Source of the DNA: a virus | IMG/VR virus record: IMGVR_UViG_3300033149_001257 | Location: 1 to 64,000 of that record | Reading direction: 5' to 3' (one strand) | Length of the DNA: 64,000 nucleotides | Shown here: positions 5,318-45,562 of the stretch, one piece after another | Position numbering within the stretch: the stretch's first letter is position 1 | How the letters are laid out: each line of letters begins with the position of its first letter | Notes under the pieces: model-generated | Database searches by the model: none | What the model saw: the letters and a program-made list of their open reading frames with translations, nothing else | What the model was told of the DNA's origin: nothing | Made by a program: the position numbers and the translations under genes

Positions 5318-5718
5318 AATATGAAATTGAACAAAGGGTTACGATTGTCAATGGAGATTATGCGGGGGTTAATGGTAAAATTGAGAATATTTCTAAAGAC
5401 GGAAATGTTTTTACAATAGAACTTGATATTCCAGGATTGCCAGAATTCCCTTTTCGTGAGGGTGATATTAAGGAATATAGTATTATGCAAGACGTGAGGG
5501 AGGATTATAAGATAACAGAAGAACTGAAAATCAAAATGCAGGCGGTTGTTGAACAGTTTGAAAAAGATAATGATTTTGAGAGGGGAGAACTTGACGGTGA
5601 TGGAACGGAGGATTTGGGATCGTGGATGAAACACTATGCTAACTACCTATGCGGTAACTATGATGATGCGGAGATAGAAGAAATGGAAGAAAAAATGGAG
5701 GCATATAATGGAAAATAA
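5314..5718 (+). CDS. KOW (NusG-CTD-like) domain protein
   Basis: RVTIVNGDYAGVNGKIENI matches the KOW pattern; AAGGAGG RBS. Confidence 0.55.
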   Translation: MKYEIEQRVTIVNGDYAGVNGKIENISKDGNVFTIELDIPGLPEFPFREGDIKEYSIMQDVREDYKITEELKIKMQAVVEQFEKDNDFERGELDGDGTEDLGSWMKHYANYLCGNYDDAEIEEMEEKMEAYNGK

Positions 5719-5884
5719 GGAACTGGTTGATAATTTTACGAATGAGTTTGATTGTATCATTGCTGAACTATACAAGGGAGGATTTGAGGGAGAAATAGAA
5801 ACAACTGAGGTTGACCGAAAAGGAGAAGAATGTCCCATAAAATTAACATGGGAGTTGAAAATAAAAAAGGAGAGAATGAGATAA
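5708..5884 (+). CDS. hypothetical protein (58 aa, not in track)
   Basis: GGAGG RBS; MENKELVDNF... Confidence 0.55.
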   Translation: MENKELVDNFTNEFDCIIAELYKGGFEGEIETTEVDRKGEECPIKLTWELKIKKERMR

Positions 5885-5897
5885 GGAATCGCCTCCA

Positions 5898-5975
5898 ACT
5901 GCCTGGGCTGTTACCCCGCAGTGCCAGGCAGTCAGAACTTTTACTTTAGTGAGGTGTTTTACCAAAGAGTAAAAG
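5898..5975 (+). ncRNA. intergenic double hairpin
   Basis: ACTGCCTGG/CCAGGCAGT stem (5898-5932), then CTTTTACT/AGTAAAAG stem (5938-5975). Confidence 0.4.
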
Positions 5976-6054
5976 CATTAACAGGAATGGGCGAAAGGGG
6001 AAACTTTAAAAGCGGGGCAGTTGTTTATGGGAAAAATTAAAAAAGGAGGGAAAC

Positions 6055-6195
6055 GTGGGAGTATTTTATCCGCAGGATGATAAAGGCGAAGTGTTTAAGC
6101 AAAAGATAAAATTATTTATCTTGGAAATGGTAATCGGAACAATATTGGTCATGGTATTTTTGAGAGTAATACTTCCAATAATAGTGAATCTTTAA
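6055..6195 (+). CDS. small membrane protein (46 aa, not in track)
   Basis: AAGGAGG RBS, GTG start, hydrophobic C-terminal half. Confidence 0.55.
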   Translation: MGVFYPQDDKGEVFKQKIKLFILEMVIGTILVMVFLRVILPIIVNL

Positions 6196-6248
6196 AAACC
6201 AATAACGGGAAGTGTGTGTGAGGAAAAAAAGGAAAGGAGGGAATTAAA

Positions 6249-6641
6249 ATGGAAAAGTTGAGAGAGGGTTCGGTTGCAAGGCACGTCGTTCTGTATGCAA
6301 AAAATCACTATGCAGAAACGGAGGTTATCGCAGATTTGAGAACAATAATCTCAATGGTGTGTGGGTTGACATTGGAACAAATATCTATTGATGTGGTTTA
6401 TGAATTGGTATGCAAAACATTCAATCAGGTGGTTGAGGGTATCTATAAGGATAATTTTATCCTTAAACTATTTGACTGGGAAACTAATGGGGAGATAACG
6501 AGGTTGAAAATGATAAGCGAAATGCTTGGGTATATATCGGCAGTTGTCTGTATGGATAGGGATGGTAATGATATTCTGGGGATGGGCGAGCCGGATGTTA
6601 ATGTACTACCCTTAAAAACCAATAACTGGGAGGTGGGATAA
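6249..6641 (+). CDS. hypothetical protein
   Basis: 130-aa ORF with AAGGAGG RBS. Confidence 0.75.
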   Translation: MEKLREGSVARHVVLYAKNHYAETEVIADLRTIISMVCGLTLEQISIDVVYELVCKTFNQVVEGIYKDNFILKLFDWETNGEITRLKMISEMLGYISAVVCMDRDGNDILGMGEPDVNVLPLKTNNWEVG

Positions 6642-6644
6642 GGC

Positions 6645-6899
6645 ATGAAAAAGAAATTGAGAATTAAGAGAGATAAGGGAAACCTTAAAATCAAAAAGGC
6701 AGTGTATTTAAAAATGGATGACGTATATACCATTAAGGGTAATCTCAGGTTAGGGAAGATAATATTTTCTTTATCAAGTGGGGGTAAGATGAAAATTCTA
6801 AAGGAAACAATGGCTTTATATGGCGATGGAGAGATTCGGGTAGACCAAGCCATTAAGTTAATGGGGGAAGTTATTGATTTAAAAAGAAAGGAGAAGTGA
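6645..6899 (+). CDS. basic hypothetical protein
   Basis: 84-aa ORF with GGAGG RBS. Confidence 0.6.
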   Translation: MKKKLRIKRDKGNLKIKKAVYLKMDDVYTIKGNLRLGKIIFSLSSGGKMKILKETMALYGDGEIRVDQAIKLMGEVIDLKRKEK

Positions 6900-6900
6900 G

Positions 6901-7143
6901 GTGGGAAGATATACGTGTTCAAAAATAAAAACAACGCAACCTGGGTTTAAGTGTAGTGTAAATAAAAGAGAGGGGGGTGTTAATTTTCTTATGAAAAGTG
7001 TATGGACTAAATCTAAATTAGACGCAATAGATGACAAGGACTTACTTATCGCAATACTTAACGAAAGGAGGTGCAGATTAGATCCGTTCTCGGTTCTGTC
7101 TATGAGGTTAAAAAAGATTATCCGGGGATTGGATAAACAGTAA
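6901..7143 (+). CDS. hypothetical protein (start may be 6991)
   Basis: ORF in the operon. Confidence 0.5.
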   Translation: MGRYTCSKIKTTQPGFKCSVNKREGGVNFLMKSVWTKSKLDAIDDKDLLIAILNERRCRLDPFSVLSMRLKKIIRGLDKQ

Positions 7144-7162
7144 GAAAGGGGATAGATATATT

Positions 7163-7336
7163 ATGTACATTAACAAGAAAGCGGTTAAGGCAAGGGTTCA
7201 TAGTTTGGGGTTCAGGATTTCGGCAAGTGGGCTATGTGCGTTGAACGAAAAGATAGACACCTGGATTGAGGTTGCAAGTAAGAATGCCGGGGGTAAGAAA
7301 ACAATAATTAGGGAAGATGTAATATTAACAAAATAA
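7163..7336 (+). CDS. histone-fold protein, prokaryotic singlet type (57 aa, not in track)
   Basis: MYINKKAVKARVHSLGFRISASGLCALNEKIDTWIEVASKNAGGKKTIIREDVILTK; L1 RIS and L2 KKTIxxED correspond to the HMf/Bd0055-type RVS and RKTIxxED. Confidence 0.7.
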   Translation: MYINKKAVKARVHSLGFRISASGLCALNEKIDTWIEVASKNAGGKKTIIREDVILTK

Positions 7337-7350
7337 AAAGGAGGCAGGAA

Positions 7351-8472
7351 ATGAAATTCAATGTTGAGAAAAAAGAGATGTTGAGGGGATTGGAAATGGT
7401 TATGATGGGGATGGTGAAGAAGTCAGATGTGGCTATACTTCACAATATCAGGATAACTGCGGATAGTGGTTGCCTTGTTTTAAGGTCAACCGATAGAGAA
7501 ATAGGTATAACAACGAGGGTTACAGGGGATGTGGTAAACGAGGGAGATGTTACTGTACCATTTAAGCAGATATATAAGGTGGTAAAACAGTTACCGGCAG
7601 GTAAGTTTGAGGTTGAGCAGGACGGTCATGTATTGCGGATAATTTCGGGTAAAATGAAATATGGGCTGGATATCACGGATGTAAAAGATTTTATGGACAT
7701 ACCTGTCACTAAGAATAAAACAATATTCACCATAACAGGCAAGGCATTAAAGGCATTGTTGGTAAAGACGGTGTTCGCAGTATCGGATGATGAAACCAGG
7801 TATGTGTTGAATGGTGTCAGGGTTGAGTTATGTAAGGGCCATGTCAGGATAGTGGCTACCGATGGCAGAAGAATGGTTGTGTTTCAGAAGTCAGGTAAGG
7901 ACTATTCCTATAAACAGGAAAAGAAAATGGACTTTATTCTCCCAGAGAAAGCGGTTAAATCCATAATAAAAATGATAAGTATTTATGGGGGTACTGTTAG
8001 TTTTAAGCATGGTAAGCTGGATAATGAGGTATTCTTTACTACCGGCAACACGATTATCCGGGCGTTGGTTATTGTGGGAGAATATCCCAAATACAGACAT
8101 ATCGTTGATAAAGCAAAAGAAAACGAGATTAAGATAAGTTTGCACAGGATGGTTCTTGTTGAGGCAATCAAGAAAATTGAGATAGGAAACAATCCCGGGC
8201 ATGGGTGTAAATTCACTTTTAATAAGGGGATTCTGACCCTGAGCGCAAAAACAACCGATATGGGGGAAATAAGCAACGAAATTGGGGTTGCCTATACAGA
8301 TAGCCTTATTCTGGGATATAGCTCTGAAATCATACTCCAGGCGCTCAGAACGCTGAATACGGAGCACGTTACGTTTGCTGTTGGGGGCATGAGGGATGCA
8401 ATGCTTATAACAGGGTATGAGAATAAGGAAAATATCTATCACGTGGTAATGCCCTATAGGGTGGACAGGTGA
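7351..8472 (+). CDS. dnaN: DNA polymerase III beta subunit (sliding clamp)
   Basis: 373 aa; STDREI, FAVSDDETRYVLNGV, ATDGRR, GEYPKY and C-terminal VVMP motifs of beta clamps. Confidence 0.93.
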   Translation: MKFNVEKKEMLRGLEMVMMGMVKKSDVAILHNIRITADSGCLVLRSTDREIGITTRVTGDVVNEGDVTVPFKQIYKVVKQLPAGKFEVEQDGHVLRIISGKMKYGLDITDVKDFMDIPVTKNKTIFTITGKALKALLVKTVFAVSDDETRYVLNGVRVELCKGHVRIVATDGRRMVVFQKSGKDYSYKQEKKMDFILPEKAVKSIIKMISIYGGTVSFKHGKLDNEVFFTTGNTIIRALVIVGEYPKYRHIVDKAKENEIKISLHRMVLVEAIKKIEIGNNPGHGCKFTFNKGILTLSAKTTDMGEISNEIGVAYTDSLILGYSSEIILQALRTLNTEHVTFAVGGMRDAMLITGYENKENIYHVVMPYRVDR

Positions 8473-8629
8473 ATACCATGTATACGATGTTACCGGTAAA
8501 GCGCAATAAATATGGAGCTGCATATGAAGTGCCCTTTGAATATGGGAACATTACTATTGAATTCTATGTATATAAGAAAATGGTAAATCAGGCAAGAGGT
8601 ATACTATTTGACAAGAGGGGGGTGAGAAC

Positions 8630-8896
8630 ATGAAAGATTTTTATGAAAAAGTATATGGTAGAGATTTTAAGCATGAGGATGAGCCCCATGGTTGGATACA
8701 GTGGAAAGGTACCGATGTTTGTATAGATTTGCATTGTAAATGCGGACACCATGGCCACTTCGATGGATATTTCCTATATTATTATGAATGTCCCGAATGC
8801 CACACTAAGTACGCTCTGGGGCAATGCGTTAAATTGATTGAATTAAGCAAAGAAGAAATAAAAGAGGCCGGAAATTTTAAGACTGATACGGATTAA
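8630..8896 (+). CDS. Cys/His-rich phage protein
   Basis: WIQWKGTDVCIDLHCKCG...CPEC. Confidence 0.7.
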   Translation: MKDFYEKVYGRDFKHEDEPHGWIQWKGTDVCIDLHCKCGHHGHFDGYFLYYYECPECHTKYALGQCVKLIELSKEEIKEAGNFKTDTD

Positions 8897-8993
8897 GGGA
8901 GGCGGTGAAGCGAGAAAAAGGTTAGCGCTCAAACAAGAGCCTGCCCTGTGGTGCCCTCAGCGCTGCAGGGTGGGAATAAAAAAGGAGGAACCA

Positions 8994-9329
8994 ATGAAAC
9001 CACAGAAAGAGCCAAGAGAGTTTAAGTGTGTGGTATGTGGGATAACATTCACAAAAGATGAGAATAAATATATAGGTGTATATGATGATATTTTATATCC
9101 CACTGAAATGTTATGTGATGGGCATACTAAATATGTTAATGAAATAATGGATAAGTTCCAGTATGGAGGCGATACTTTAGCATGGAGAAAACGCGGAGGG
9201 TGGGTAGAGTTTATTGAAGACAATAGGTGGGCACTCGGTAGCAAGCTAACGGGAGGACAGTTTGCAAGAGAGGCTCGCAGGGTATGTCGTGGGGGCTACC
9301 CACGAACCGGACAGAGGGGGGTGGAGTAA
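8994..9329 (+). CDS. hypothetical protein
   Basis: AAGGAGG RBS before MKPQK. Confidence 0.65.
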   Translation: MKPQKEPREFKCVVCGITFTKDENKYIGVYDDILYPTEMLCDGHTKYVNEIMDKFQYGGDTLAWRKRGGWVEFIEDNRWALGSKLTGGQFAREARRVCRGGYPRTGQRGVE

Positions 9330-9809
9330 ATGAAAGATAATCGGAAGGATAGTATGATAATACCGGGAAGTGCAACAAGACGTTCAATCAAGTTATTAGA
9401 AACAGAACACAGGAACATGGAACTTGATTATCATAAGTGCGAAAGGAGGAGGGATCGTGGGTGGAAAAAAACACAAGAATATCTCAAGGCGGAGATGAAG
9501 GAATTGAGGGTTGATATACAGGAGTTACGGACAATCCGGAGAGAAAAGGAACTGATAGAGATATGCAAGAAGAATGATTATAGGATGGATATTGCTTGTT
9601 TTCAGTGGAAGGATGAGTGGATATGGCTTGTTAAAATATCAAAAGTGAAAATAGATAAATTTGATGCGCGATTGGAAAAAATACTCCCATGGATACTTGC
9701 CAGAACTAAATCCGAAGCCATAGGCAATGCCCTTAAAAGTCCATCGGTTAATCCAAAAAAGAAATCAAAATCTAAAAGGAATAAAAAGGGAGGTATATAT
9801 GGACATTAG
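9330..9809 (+). CDS. hypothetical protein
   Basis: 159-aa coupled ORF. Confidence 0.7.
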   Translation: MKDNRKDSMIIPGSATRRSIKLLETEHRNMELDYHKCERRRDRGWKKTQEYLKAEMKELRVDIQELRTIRREKELIEICKKNDYRMDIACFQWKDEWIWLVKISKVKIDKFDARLEKILPWILARTKSEAIGNALKSPSVNPKKKSKSKRNKKGGIYGH

Positions 9810-10337: not shown

Positions 10338-10637
10338 ATGAAAATAATCGTATTCAGTAATAAGTTTAATGCGGAAAAGTATCGTAACGACCTTCGTCGT
10401 AAAGGTTGGCACTCTGTTAGTGTTGGGCATTTTAATTATAGGCTGGAAAAAGAGGGAGAGCCCGCCATATGTCTTGAGATAGTTACTCCAATGATTGTGG
10501 GGCATGGACTATTTAAGTTTCTTAATTCAGCGGCGGCAGAAGAATACAGGGCGGAGGGTATAGAGATAGACGTGGCAGATGTTTTGAGGGGGATAGATAA
10601 TCTAAAAGAGGAGGTTATGAAATGTGCAGATTTATGA
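10338..10637 (+). CDS. hypothetical protein
   Basis: First ORF after the promoter; start MKIIV. Confidence 0.65.
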   Translation: MKIIVFSNKFNAEKYRNDLRRKGWHSVSVGHFNYRLEKEGEPAICLEIVTPMIVGHGLFKFLNSAAAEEYRAEGIEIDVADVLRGIDNLKEEVMKCADL

Positions 10638-11716
10638 GTTTTATTGTAACGGAGGATGGTAAGATTAATGTGTGTAAGGACAATCGGCACGAAACAGGGA
10701 TTGGGGAGTTGGGATTAAAAGACGATACTTGTGATGTTGATAAGTTGACATTCGCAAGGATAGAGATTATTCCTCCCAATGGCGAATGGTGGAATGATGA
10801 TTTTAAGAAGTGGGAGTATGTGGTTGATGAAAGAATAAAACCAACGTGGCTCACAAAGAAACATGAGAAACTTGTTAGGGTAGAATTAGAAAAAGAATAT
10901 GAGAACTTTGTCGTAAAAGACAAAGAGGTTGATATTATAAAGGATTGTAAGTATTCGTTAATGGTTCGTAATGCAAAAATAAATGTGTTGGATAATTCCA
11001 CCGTAAATAAAATGTGGGATAATTCCACCGTAAATAAAATGTTGGATAATTCCACCGTAAATAAAATGTGGGCTAATTCCACCGTAAATAAAATGTTGGC
11101 TAATTCCACCGTAAATGAAATGTGGGCTAATTCCACCGTAAATAAAATGTTGGCTAATTCCACCGTAAATAAAATGTTGGCTAATTCCACCGTAAATGAA
11201 ATGTTGGCTAATTCCACCGTAAATGAAATGTTGGATAATTCCACCGTAAATAAAATGTTGGCTAATTCCACCGTAAATAAAATGTTGGATAATTCCACCG
11301 TAAATGAAATGTTGGATAATTCCACCGTAAATAAAATGTTGGCTAATTCCACCGTAAATGAAATGTGGGCTAATTCCACCGTAAATAAAATGTTGGCTAA
11401 TTCCACCGTAAATGAAATGTGGGCTAATTCCACCGTAAATGAAATGTTGGATAATTCCACCGTAAATAAAATGTGGGATAATTCCACCGTAAATAAAATG
11501 TTGGATAATTCCACCGTAAATGAAATGTTGGATAATTCCACCGTAAATAAAATGTGGGCTAATTCCACCGTAAATAAAATGTTGGCTAATTCCACCGTAA
11601 ATAAAATGTTGGCTAATTCCACCGCCAAAAGGTTAAAGAACGGTGTTTGGATAATAGAGCACAATAAAAACATGAAAATAAAATTAGTAAACCACAAAAA
11701 TAAGGAGGTAAAGTAA
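10622..11716 (+). CDS. nonapeptide-repeat (putative beta-solenoid) phage protein
   Basis: N-terminal MCRFMSFIVT domain followed by 23 x NSTVN[K/E]M[L/W][D/A]. Confidence 0.85.
   Translation: MCRFMSFIVTEDGKINVCKDNRHETGIGELGLKDDTCDVDKLTFARIEIIPPNGEWWNDDFKKWEYVVDERIKPTWLTKKHEKLVRVELEKEYENFVVKDKEVDIIKDCKYSLMVRNAKINVLDNSTVNKMWDNSTVNKMLDNSTVNKMWANSTVNKMLANSTVNEMWANSTVNKMLANSTVNKMLANSTVNEMLANSTVNEMLDNSTVNKMLANSTVNKMLDNSTVNEMLDNSTVNKMLANSTVNEMWANSTVNKMLANSTVNEMWANSTVNEMLDNSTVNKMWDNSTVNKMLDNSTVNEMLDNSTVNKMWANSTVNKMLANSTVNKMLANSTAKRLKNGVWIIEHNKNMKIKLVNHKNKEVK
10994..11624 (+). repeat. 27-bp coding tandem repeat, 23 full units plus a partial unit
   Basis: Unit AATTCCACCGTAAAT[A/G]AAATGT[T/G]GG[A/C]T. 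Confidence 0.97.
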
Positions 11717-34839: not shown

Positions 34840-35751
34840 ATGAACAAGCTAATCGGGATATTCAAAAGATTCTTTATTGCGCAAAGGGGAAATTCTGTAT
34901 CCTCAGTTAAGGGGTATGTATCAGTAATTAGGGATTTTGGAACTTTCGTTTCCAAAAAAGGCATTAATGTGGAATCGGCTACTCCAGAAACGGTTATGGA
35001 GTACGTTTCGGTGGTTAAGAAACGCTGCAAACCCCAGACTGCTGCGGGATATGTTACCAAATTAAAGACGTTTTATCAGATATTGGTACAGAAGGGGCTT
35101 GTAAAGGCCTCTCCTGTAGGGGAAATACACATAAAGTGGCATCAGGAGCCACGTGATATACTGTCCGATAATGAGGTTGAGGGTATTCTGGGTCAGGCAA
35201 GGGTGAATTATGGCAGTAAAGGCTCATTGTACGCCAATAAACAGGGGTTCTGTAAGTGTTCCAAGGAAGTCCGGGCGCTCAGGGATTACCTTATATTGTC
35301 ACTTCTGTCTGAAACCGGTGTCAGAATAGCCGAGTTACTTAATATTAAGCCAATGGACATTGATTTTGAGGCAAAGAGGATAAGGATACTGGGTAAGGGT
35401 AATAAGGTAAGGATACAGCCCATCACAGCCCAAACTGGTGCCCTCATGGGAACCTTTTTAGCCCAAAGTGGTTCCGTAATAAATAGGGATGCCCCGGTAT
35501 TTGATATCACGCGACCGGGTGTTGATAATATAATAAAATTCTTCTGCGGACTTGCGGATGTATCAAAAAGCATATCCCCCCACTCGTTTCGTCACTATTT
35601 CATTACCGCCTGCCACCGCAGGGGGCTTGACCTCATAAGCCTACAAAGACTGGCGGGCCACGCGAACCTTAATACGACTTCCAGGTATACGCATATAAGC
35701 ATAGATGACCTGCAGGAAAAATACGAGAGTGTCCAAGGAGGTACTTGTTAA
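34840..35751 (+). CDS. XerC/XerD-like tyrosine recombinase
   Basis: N-terminal SAM-like domain; TGVRIAE, GKGNKVR, HSFRH, LAGH, RYTH catalytic set. Confidence 0.93.
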   Translation: MNKLIGIFKRFFIAQRGNSVSSVKGYVSVIRDFGTFVSKKGINVESATPETVMEYVSVVKKRCKPQTAAGYVTKLKTFYQILVQKGLVKASPVGEIHIKWHQEPRDILSDNEVEGILGQARVNYGSKGSLYANKQGFCKCSKEVRALRDYLILSLLSETGVRIAELLNIKPMDIDFEAKRIRILGKGNKVRIQPITAQTGALMGTFLAQSGSVINRDAPVFDITRPGVDNIIKFFCGLADVSKSISPHSFRHYFITACHRRGLDLISLQRLAGHANLNTTSRYTHISIDDLQEKYESVQGGTC

Positions 35752-44464: not shown

Positions 44465-45562
44465 TTATTGTATACCCCAAACTCCTTTCAATCGGATTAA
44501 TTCGTCCTTTATGTTCTTTGTCAGATTGTACCGGTCATATACCGCCCTTTGTCCGGTGGCAGCTACTCTTTCGCGTAATGCGTCGTTTCTTGCGAATTGC
44601 AATATCTTATTTTCCATATCGTCAAGGCTGTCCCAGAACACTGCTTCACTACCGTGCTTAAATATATCGGGGCATCCCTTTTCCTTATATGTCAAGAGAA
44701 GGCTCTTGCATCCCATCATCTGGAACGTCTTTGCATCAAAATACTTATCCGCAGGAACCCCATCCCAGTTCCGGGTATTTACGCATATCTTAGTATTGGA
44801 ATATATCTTCCATATCTCATGCTCGTTTACCCAGGGTTGTAGATATTTTACGGTACGGCTGTCGTTATCTGATACACCCCACCTTGTTCCTGGATTACCA
44901 CCCCACAGTTTATAGGTTAATCCAGTTCTCTCTGCTATGTCCATGAGCCTTGTGTTGACCTCTGCGCGGTTAGGACTTCCTATGGCATCCCATGTACCGG
45001 CAAAACATATATCAGCCTTATAATAATCTCTTTCTTCCGGTGTCATTTTATCTTTATTCGTTTCGTTATGGTGGTTAGGATTACACCCCGGATAGAATAA
45101 TACGGATTCTTTTATCCCGAGTTTATCTCTATAATAATTCTGGCTACTCTCAGCGCATGTCCATACCACATCAAAATACTTGCATTTCTCTACAATATCA
45201 CATCTGTTATTAAATACCCAGCCGGGGTCATCGTATATCCAGAATATCACATGCTTGACCTTCTCTCTTATCTTTTTAATTGTTTCGGTAAATGTGAAAT
45301 CTGCCTTAAATATTATAATCACGTCCGGCTTGTATCGGTCAATGGTATCAAGCGTGTCCTTCTGCATCATGTCAATTGCTTTCAATCTGGCCTTCGTGGG
45401 GTCCATCTTGGTTTTCCTTACAATGGCATCTCGTATATTCTTAACCACTGTCCTGGGTGCATAATACAAATAATCAAATCCAGCAGCATTTACTCCCTCT
45501 TCTACGCTTTCCCAGAAGGGGCCACCTGTAAGACTAAACCCTATGTTCATTAATTTCATCAT
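44465..45562 (-). CDS. CgeB-like (Glyco_trans_1_2) glycosyltransferase
   Basis: YKPDV, WIYDDP, DICFAGT, SNTKICVN...KTFQMMGC. Confidence 0.85.
   Translation of the reverse strand: MMKLMNIGFSLTGGPFWESVEEGVNAAGFDYLYYAPRTVVKNIRDAIVRKTKMDPTKARLKAIDMMQKDTLDTIDRYKPDVIIIFKADFTFTETIKKIREKVKHVIFWIYDDPGWVFNNRCDIVEKCKYFDVVWTCAESSQNYYRDKLGIKESVLFYPGCNPNHHNETNKDKMTPEERDYYKADICFAGTWDAIGSPNRAEVNTRLMDIAERTGLTYKLWGGNPGTRWGVSDNDSRTVKYLQPWVNEHEIWKIYSNTKICVNTRNWDGVPADKYFDAKTFQMMGCKSLLLTYKEKGCPDIFKHGSEAVFWDSLDDMENKILQFARNDALRERVAATGQRAVYDRYNLTKNIKDELIRLKGVWGIQ

Follow-up and report, generated by a model that had tools for sequence, protein, structure and literature searches.

A phage-encoded 57-residue protein with a predicted alpha3-truncated histone fold, located directly upstream of a sliding clamp gene

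Bacterial histones have been recognised only in 2023-2025 and, to our knowledge, the short alpha3 histones encoded by phages have been catalogued computationally, with none tested at the bench. The alpha3 family, together with a 'phage histone' class, was defined by Schwab et al. 2024 (PMC11390915), who described an architecture made of a helix, a loop, a long helix, a second loop and a one-turn helix. Their 'phage histones' carry an added C-terminal tetramerisation helix and are devoid of the RxTxxxD motif (PMC11390915). Mining of IMG/VR by Liu et al. 2025 rendered 289 non-redundant histone-fold proteins of Caudoviricetes, arranged in the clusters VTTHFP, VHHHFP, VFFHFP and BBVHFP (PMC13681535). 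VHHHFP are characterised by the alpha3 fold and a short flexible tail, a conserved K-K in alpha1 and K-R in loop 2, while BBVHFP correspond to Bd0055-like dimers (PMC13681535). HBb and HLp, two alpha3 histones of bacteria, show no sequence specificity in their binding to the DNA backbone (PMC12701072; PMC11390915). A histone fold need not bind DNA, since in TAFs and DUF1931 proteins it can serve protein-protein interactions instead (PMC11390915).

The DNA analysed here, a window of 64,000 nucleotides, is part of a 110,457-bp virus record of IMG/VR (39.9% GC, no tRNA genes, CheckV completeness of ~66%). Structural genes of a tailed phage are found in the record, including those for the large terminase, a tape-measure protein and tail proteins. 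An earlier sequence-only reading had taken the protein under study to be phage-encoded, and the terminase and the tape-measure protein in the same record indeed identify a tailed phage. Genes of replication and recombination encode DnaB, a DnaD/O-like initiator, an SbcC-like protein, a helicase and exonucleases, and further genes encode two DNA methyltransferases, a tyrosine integrase and TnpB.

The gene that is the subject of this work encodes P0001 and lies in a run of closely packed genes on the same strand (Table 1). Gaps of 3, 1 and 19 nt are found along the three upstream ORFs to the histone gene; these ORFs, which rendered no significant match to Pfam or PHROGs, probably share its transcription unit. 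There are 11 nt from the last G of the Shine-Dalgarno-like site to the ATG, and the homologue in the closest relative, contig L001, has AAAGGAGG 7 nt ahead of its own ATG. The product of the downstream gene shows all three DNA_pol3_beta domains above cut-off (PF00712, PF02767 and PF02768; E 9e-22, 7.5e-18 and 5e-9) and belongs to PHROG 947 'DNA polymerase processivity factor' (E 8.9e-59). The closest clamps of GenBank phages are at most 28% identical to it, and no close relatives were found when it was used as a query against viral contigs. Since the prediction of terminator-like sites rendered none on the + strand from 5500 to 9500, the histone gene and dnaN are likely co-transcribed, and early.

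Table 1. Features around the putative histone gene (positions refer to the window)
Feature	Position	Strand	Remarks
Closest upstream copy of TAACAGG-N11-RGGAAA, one mismatch	6203-6226	+	Ahead of histone unit
Three packed ORFs upstream of the histone gene	6249-6641, 6645-6899, 6901-7143	+	
Shine-Dalgarno-like site GAAAGGGGA of the histone gene	7144-7152	+	Read from sequence
Predicted alpha3-truncated histone-fold gene (P0001), 57 codons	7163-7336	+	ATG at 7163; TAA stop at 7334-7336
14-nt spacer carrying the clamp gene's ribosome-binding site AAAGGAGG (7337-7344)	7337-7350	+	
Beta sliding clamp gene, DnaN-like, 373 aa, three domains	7351-8472	+	Pfam, PHROGs

The sequence-only reading had described here a 57-aa ORF that ends 14 nt before dnaN and had been missed by the ORF track. 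Both its coordinates and its length are correct, and the gap to the next gene is exactly 14 nt. Its absence from the track is explained by its size, as the ORF lister has a default minimum of 60 aa. P0001 was nonetheless predicted by public gene callers, and the exact protein is present in the protein collection and in the ESM Atlas.

A search of the protein collection identified a family of nine proteins of 54-64 aa, of which two relatives are 82% and 72% identical to P0001 and six are 26-48% identical. All nine are basic (pI 9.2-10.3; 9.9 for P0001). Two extra copies were read from DNA, one in the phage record L006 (72 aa) and one in a prophage of the bacterial genome G109 (60 aa). Between P0001 and the 72%-identical copy of L001, nucleotide differences are distributed 12/9/29 over the three codon positions, and the differing codons comprise 22 synonymous and 15 non-synonymous ones. 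As judged from such sequence comparisons, the ORF is a real gene under purifying selection. It is also, by aligned identity, the best-conserved gene common to the two phages (72%, versus 30-53% for the remaining genes that they have in common).

Scans of viral contigs with P0001 and two further members (P0008 and P0006) detected no relative, and scans with two family alignments (A3 and A4) detected only one other IMG/VR contig. Searched by tblastn, the GenBank phages gave no match to P0001 or to the L006 protein, and no relative was found in a scan of genome contigs with alignment A3. The subfamily has so far been seen only on phage or prophage DNA. Longer or fused forms of the family were not found in the search, which is weak evidence, and the ~55 alignable columns are too few for reliable placement of the family in a tree among the alpha3 subgroups.

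Neither Pfam nor PHROGs rendered a match for P0001 or for any other member of the family. P0001 is not above the gathering threshold of the Pfam model PF00808 (CBFD_NFYB_HMF). Used on cellular alpha3 histones as controls, PF00808 also fails on two of them (L023 and L025) and is sub-threshold on a third (L024), so that its failure to match the phage protein is uninformative; the model, not P0001, is the limiting factor. As a single sequence, P0001 matched one PDB entry, HLp of Leptospira perolatii (E 0.037). A profile built from seven family members matched HTkC (9F2C, E 7.3e-7), HLp (9QT0, E 4.4e-6) and HBb/Bd0055 (8FVX, E 3.4e-5; 8CMP, E 3.8e-5), the identities of the PDB entries having been checked in PMC11390915 and in the HLp paper. 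The significant PDB matches of this profile are exclusively the four solved alpha3-truncated histone sequences, and the match to the archaeal histone 8BDK (E 0.21) is not significant. Alignment of the phage family by hhalign to four cellular alpha3 histones of Omnitrophota gave a probability of 96.9% and an E value of 1.7e-10, and spanned 53 of 57 columns. The best-scoring cellular partner is an HBb-like Omnitrophota protein for P0001-P0003, and face-to-face (FtF)-like ones for other members. In the ESM Atlas, many unnamed viral clusters of 55-63 aa appear with scores of at least 0.9, as well as a Bdellovibrionota PF00808 cluster with a score of 0.89 and 183 shared features, and the BFVD contains several uncultured-phage proteins with the same fold. 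Taken as a whole, the sequence comparisons indicate that P0001 is homologous to the alpha3 histones of bacteria and archaea.

The AF2 model of P0001 obtained with a nine-sequence alignment has a pLDDT of 82.4, with values of 60-69 in the C-terminal third, and a single-sequence run was uninformative (pLDDT 57.6). The model consists of alpha1 (residues 5-14), loop 1 (15-20), alpha2 (21-41, 21 residues), loop 2 (42-49) and alpha3 (50-52). It does not lack the histone fold, its topology matching that of the alpha3 histones, and the truncation of alpha3 that had been claimed from the letters is seen as a one-turn helix of three residues in a chain that ends at position 57. In a Foldseek search of 350,542 chains, HLp, HBb (three chains) and HTkC occupied the top five positions, with probabilities of 0.99-0.84, TM values of 0.64-0.72 and weak E values (0.09-0.5). 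A different search, of 48,161 PDB representatives, rendered only three chains with a Z of at least 5, namely HLp (5.9; rmsd 2.0, 49 aligned), HBb (5.6) and HTkC (5.5), with the histone folds of TAF4/TAF12 and H3/H4 at ranks 4-5. Over all structural comparisons, Z amounted to 5.4-5.6 for HBb and 5.5-5.6 (rmsd 2.4) for HTkC.

These structural scores are modest, as would be expected for an extended monomer of 57 residues, and would be weak taken alone. One could argue from them (structural Z below 6, Foldseek E above 0.05), and from the uninformative results of Pfam, PHROGs and the single-sequence AF2 run, that P0001 is not a histone at all but a generic small helical hairpin that resembles one by chance or convergence. 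We consider this extremely improbable, given that the calibrated profile statistics point only to histones, that the sequence search and two fold searches over ~48,000 to 350,000 chains rank the same three proteins first, and that the register of the loop-1 and loop-2 motifs is conserved. It is the agreement of the fold searches with the calibrated sequence statistics that carries the case for a histone fold, two lines that are not fully independent, since the family alignment was also used to build the model. The histone fold proposed in the sequence-only reading thus finds backing in the profile matches to HTkC, HLp and HBb, in the hhalign comparison, and in the AF2 model and fold searches, and the assignment of P0001 as a histone-fold protein with a truncated alpha3 is supported by sequence and model.

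The motifs that had been singled out, a basic alpha1, FRIS in loop 1 and GKKTIIREDV in loop 2, are present and align as claimed. In loop 2, K45-K46-T47-I-I-R-E-D52 aligns to the R-K-T-x-x-x-x-D of HBb and of cellular alpha3 histones, with T47 and D52 in register; K46 is invariant across the family, and the T and the D are mostly kept. The arginine of the RD-clamp (RxTxxxxD), which is an Arg in one of the nine members, is replaced by K45 in P0001, so that loop 2 may be held differently. Loop 1 of P0001 contains G16, R18 and S20, and R18 is kept in six of the nine members. HLp K17 corresponds to K9 of P0001, a position occupied by K or R throughout the family (9/9), and the loop-2 residues K54/T56 of HLp correspond to K46/T47. 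The HLp residues that match K9, R18, K46 and T47 contact DNA in HLp-DNA crystals (PMC12701072). Similarly, V8, V12, L27, I31 and W34 align with V16, I20, L35, L39 and L42 of the HLp dimer core. The FtF tetramer residues R49/N53/R55 of HLp correspond to S39/G43/K45, in columns that are variable across the family. As aligned, P0001 does not carry the FtF tetramer signature and, because those residues are not conserved, an HBb-type dimer is taken as the default model. At the alpha2/loop-2 junction, HBb, HLp and HTkC have two residues more than the family, and P0001 ends 5 residues after D52.

We infer the dimerisation, DNA binding, timing and role of P0001 by analogy with its solved relatives, and the function that we find probable is that of a basic handshake dimer that would bind and bend DNA non-specifically during early replication or recombination. 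Held together by the long alpha2, two copies of P0001 would most likely pair head-to-tail as a histone handshake dimer. Each face of the dimer would offer a paired loop-1/loop-2 site, with R18/S20 from one chain and K46/T47 from the other, and the alpha1 lysines K5, K6 and K9 would add to this DNA-facing site. By holding the phosphate backbone whatever the sequence, the dimer would bend the DNA or compact it locally. P0001 would probably be made early, from a + strand unit common with the phage's own clamp, and could serve the phage as a nucleoid-associated protein of its own while its DNA is replicated and recombined, much as proteins of the HU/IHF type help origin remodelling, replisome or recombination reactions; no gene of the HU/IHF family was found above threshold in the 110 kb of the record.

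The genomic contexts of the family bear on this proposal. Downstream of the histone gene of L001 come a zinc-finger ORF and, after it, genes homologous to those of the window for the 384-aa protein, the SbcC-like protein and the helicase, and no clamp gene is present in the 20 kb examined. In L006, a temperate phage of 34% GC, the histone gene lies after a CI/Cro-type switch and before a PD-(D/E)XK nuclease gene, and its 35-kb record contains no clamp. In the G109 prophage, which belongs to a member of the Omnitrophota, the gene follows those of a helicase and a DNA polymerase. All four contexts, including that of P0001, correspond to an early or a replication/recombination module. The carriers range from 34 to 50% GC and have almost no other genes in common, so that the histone gene behaves as a mobile phage accessory gene. 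As a separate observation, the histone gene of the G109 prophage (C3, ~117-157 kb of a 167-kb contig; L022/L028-L029) precedes a diversity-generating retroelement made of bAvd and a reverse transcriptase, after which come tape-measure and tail-fibre J genes.

The sequence-only reading had presented the histone gene as coupled to that of the sliding clamp. What stands of this is the tight packing with dnaN in a same-strand run; the module is not conserved, since the pairing is missing from the three other carriers and no histone-like frame was seen within 3 kb in the four phages of GenBank whose clamps are the nearest. In the contexts compared, the coupling to the clamp is local, not conserved. 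This weighs on the view that P0001 would be a replisome accessory, with the histone-fold dimer working together with the phage clamp and tethering the clamp or a polymerase to duplex DNA. The histone-fold pair Dpb3-Dpb4 acts on eukaryotic Pol epsilon, and the arrangement of the two genes, with the histone stop codon 14 nt before dnaN and the ribosome-binding site of the clamp gene in the spacer, would be compatible with a similar task. Moreover, no polymerase gene (Pol III alpha, Pol A) was found in the 110 kb of the ~66% complete record, so that the clamp must cooperate with a partner that the record does not show. However, the polymerase gene may simply lie in the missing third or so of the genome, the pairing does not extend to the other carriers or to the phages with the nearest clamps, and P0001 contains no glutamine at all and hence no clamp-binding peptide of the QL[SD]LF or QxxLxxF type. 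We therefore regard a replisome accessory as unlikely, and the non-specific DNA-bending dimer remains the reading that we prefer.

The early region also contains a repeated motif. TAACAGG-N11-RGGAAA was found 9 times (with up to 1 mismatch) in the window, against 0.33 matches expected; eight of the nine copies are on the + strand between 1265 and 8431, one of them, at 8408, inside the 3' end of dnaN, and the remaining one is at 45508 on the - strand. The motif may be a phage promoter or a regulatory site. P0001 could be imagined as a sequence-selective regulator, the dimer binding particular phage sites such as this motif or an origin and controlling the early-to-middle switch in transcription or the initiation of replication. 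The histone gene is located inside the very region tiled by the + strand copies, and its L006 homologue comes directly after the CI/Cro-type switch. Against this, the characterised alpha3 histones HBb and HLp bind without specificity (PMC12701072; PMC11390915), and a family common to phages of 34-50% GC with unrelated gene sets is hard to reconcile with a phage-specific site. Such a regulatory role seems improbable to us, and DNA bending without sequence preference is retained as the working proposal.

The record contains other features that deserve mention in their own right. A 364-aa ORF (window 10622-11716, +) includes a 27-nt (9-aa) unit that is repeated 24 times in tandem, almost without change; the array extends from 10977 to 11624 with 94% matches, and the opposite strand is open across it too. 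A tyrosine integrase is encoded at window 34840-35751 (+), and its presence suggests that this phage, larger than 110 kb, is temperate or plasmid-like. In a 247-aa protein (record 95775-96518; L004:11775-12515), an NMN-transporter-like N-terminus is joined to a MazZ-type dATP/dGTP diphosphohydrolase domain (E 1.5e-30). The idea of a Z-genome was discarded, since in spite of the MazZ-like domain no PurZ (PF00709) is found in the 110 kb of this ~66% complete record. Genes for MT-A70, an N6/N4 DNA methyltransferase, a D123-family protein and an M42 aminopeptidase are located at record positions 85647-86750, 100719-102143, 97563-98333 and 94678-95775, respectively. The TnpB / IS605 OrfB protein (Cas12f-like TNB domain) is encoded within the structural region (record 77449-78540, -; L003:13449-14537).

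TnpB was considered as a marker of the host and rejected, its relatives (56-68% identity) being scattered over MAGs of Aerophobetes, Clostridia, Gammaproteobacteria and Omnitrophota. No match to the family profile was obtained in the five genomes with these TnpB relatives or in 31 Aerophobetes genomes. Applied to 251 Omnitrophota genomes, the profile identified cellular alpha3 histones in four (G209, G054, G156 and G168; L023-L026); the match in a fifth genome was the prophage copy of G109, and a sixth was a false positive. Three of these cellular histones have the FtF signature R-x-x-x-N-x-R-x-T, and the other is HBb-like. G109, the only bacterial genome with a copy of the family, has no detectable cellular alpha3 histone.

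The sequence-only reading had suggested that the phage may coat or protect its DNA with the protein, or may disrupt host histone assemblies. The homology of the phage family to cellular alpha3 histones, present in 4 of the 251 Omnitrophota genomes, raises the question of whether P0001 might antagonise host chromatin, either by forming mixed, dead dimers with a host alpha3 histone or by competing with host nucleoid proteins, whereby the host chromosome would be freed or shut down. The unusually good conservation of its sequence between otherwise divergent phages would fit such a function. On the other hand, the TnpB relatives are spread over four phyla and point to no host, the genome that harbours a prophage copy shows no cellular alpha3 histone that could be poisoned, and the family has kept a basic charge and DNA-contact residues that a pure decoy would not need. 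An antagonist of this kind is, in our opinion, very unlikely, and the disruption of host histones finds no support so far.

P0001 is a new example in an already catalogued class (PMC11390915, PMC13681535) and does not constitute a new category. Its subfamily is a small one of basic proteins with nothing beyond the fold; it is much better conserved than the neighbouring replication genes and recurs in unrelated phages, and genes for such phage mini-histones are currently overlooked by Pfam and PHROGs. Being a tag-free protein of 57 residues, P0001 is a convenient candidate for asking what a virus gains from a histone of its own, be it bent DNA in replication or recombination, protection against nucleases, or a means of interfering with the nucleoid of the host. 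It is doubtful that P0001 is a replication-fork factor acting with the phage beta clamp or that it poisons host alpha3 histones through mixed dimers; if either were true, a phage histone-fold protein would have a role beyond simple coating of DNA and a fork factor would be the equivalent, in a virus of bacteria, of the histone-fold subunits with which eukaryotic polymerases bind DNA.

Among the described systems, the catalogued phage histone-fold proteins are, like P0001, alpha3-type folds from uncultured Caudoviricetes, found by mining of IMG/VR and UniProt. P0001 falls outside the 'phage histone' class of Schwab et al., or VTTHFP, since it has no long C-terminal helix and keeps K-x-T-x-x-x-x-D. 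Compared by cluster description, VHHHFP and BBVHFP are the likeliest homes for its family. With the nucleosomal histones of archaea (HMfB) P0001 has in common the fold, the R-x-S of loop 1 and the x-K-T-I-x-x-x-D-[IV] register of loop 2, but the full 10-residue alpha3 and the longer alpha2 that lead to hypernucleosome stacking in the HMfB type are both missing in P0001, and the only profile match in this direction is the weak one to 8BDK, a non-canonical histone of archaea.

The best profile and structural matches of P0001 are the FtF alpha3 histones HLp of Leptospira perolatii and HTkC of Thermococcus kodakarensis (PDB 9QT0-2, 9F2C; PMC12701072, PMC11390915). Like them, P0001 is a protein of ~57-65 residues that consists of the fold only, with a shortened alpha2, a one-turn alpha3, a basic alpha1 and the K-T of loop 2; unlike them, it is without the FtF residues, has a junction two residues shorter, and is borne by a phage and not by a chromosome. 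HBb/Bd0055 of Bdellovibrio bacteriovorus, the 'bacterial dimer' alpha3 histone (PDB 8FVX, 8CMP, 9EZZ), is a significant profile match of the family, yet not the best one. P0001 resembles it in the gap-free G-[RK]-K-T-x-x-x-x-D-[IV] register of loop 2 and in having no FtF signature, and differs from it in sequence (at most ~24% identity), in the replacement of the RD-clamp Arg by Lys, and in being shorter at the N-terminus and in alpha2. In addition, HBb is an abundant, essential and chromosomal protein of a bacterium, whereas P0001 is phage-borne. By analogy, a DNA-bending dimer of the HBb type is most likely the appropriate working model for P0001.
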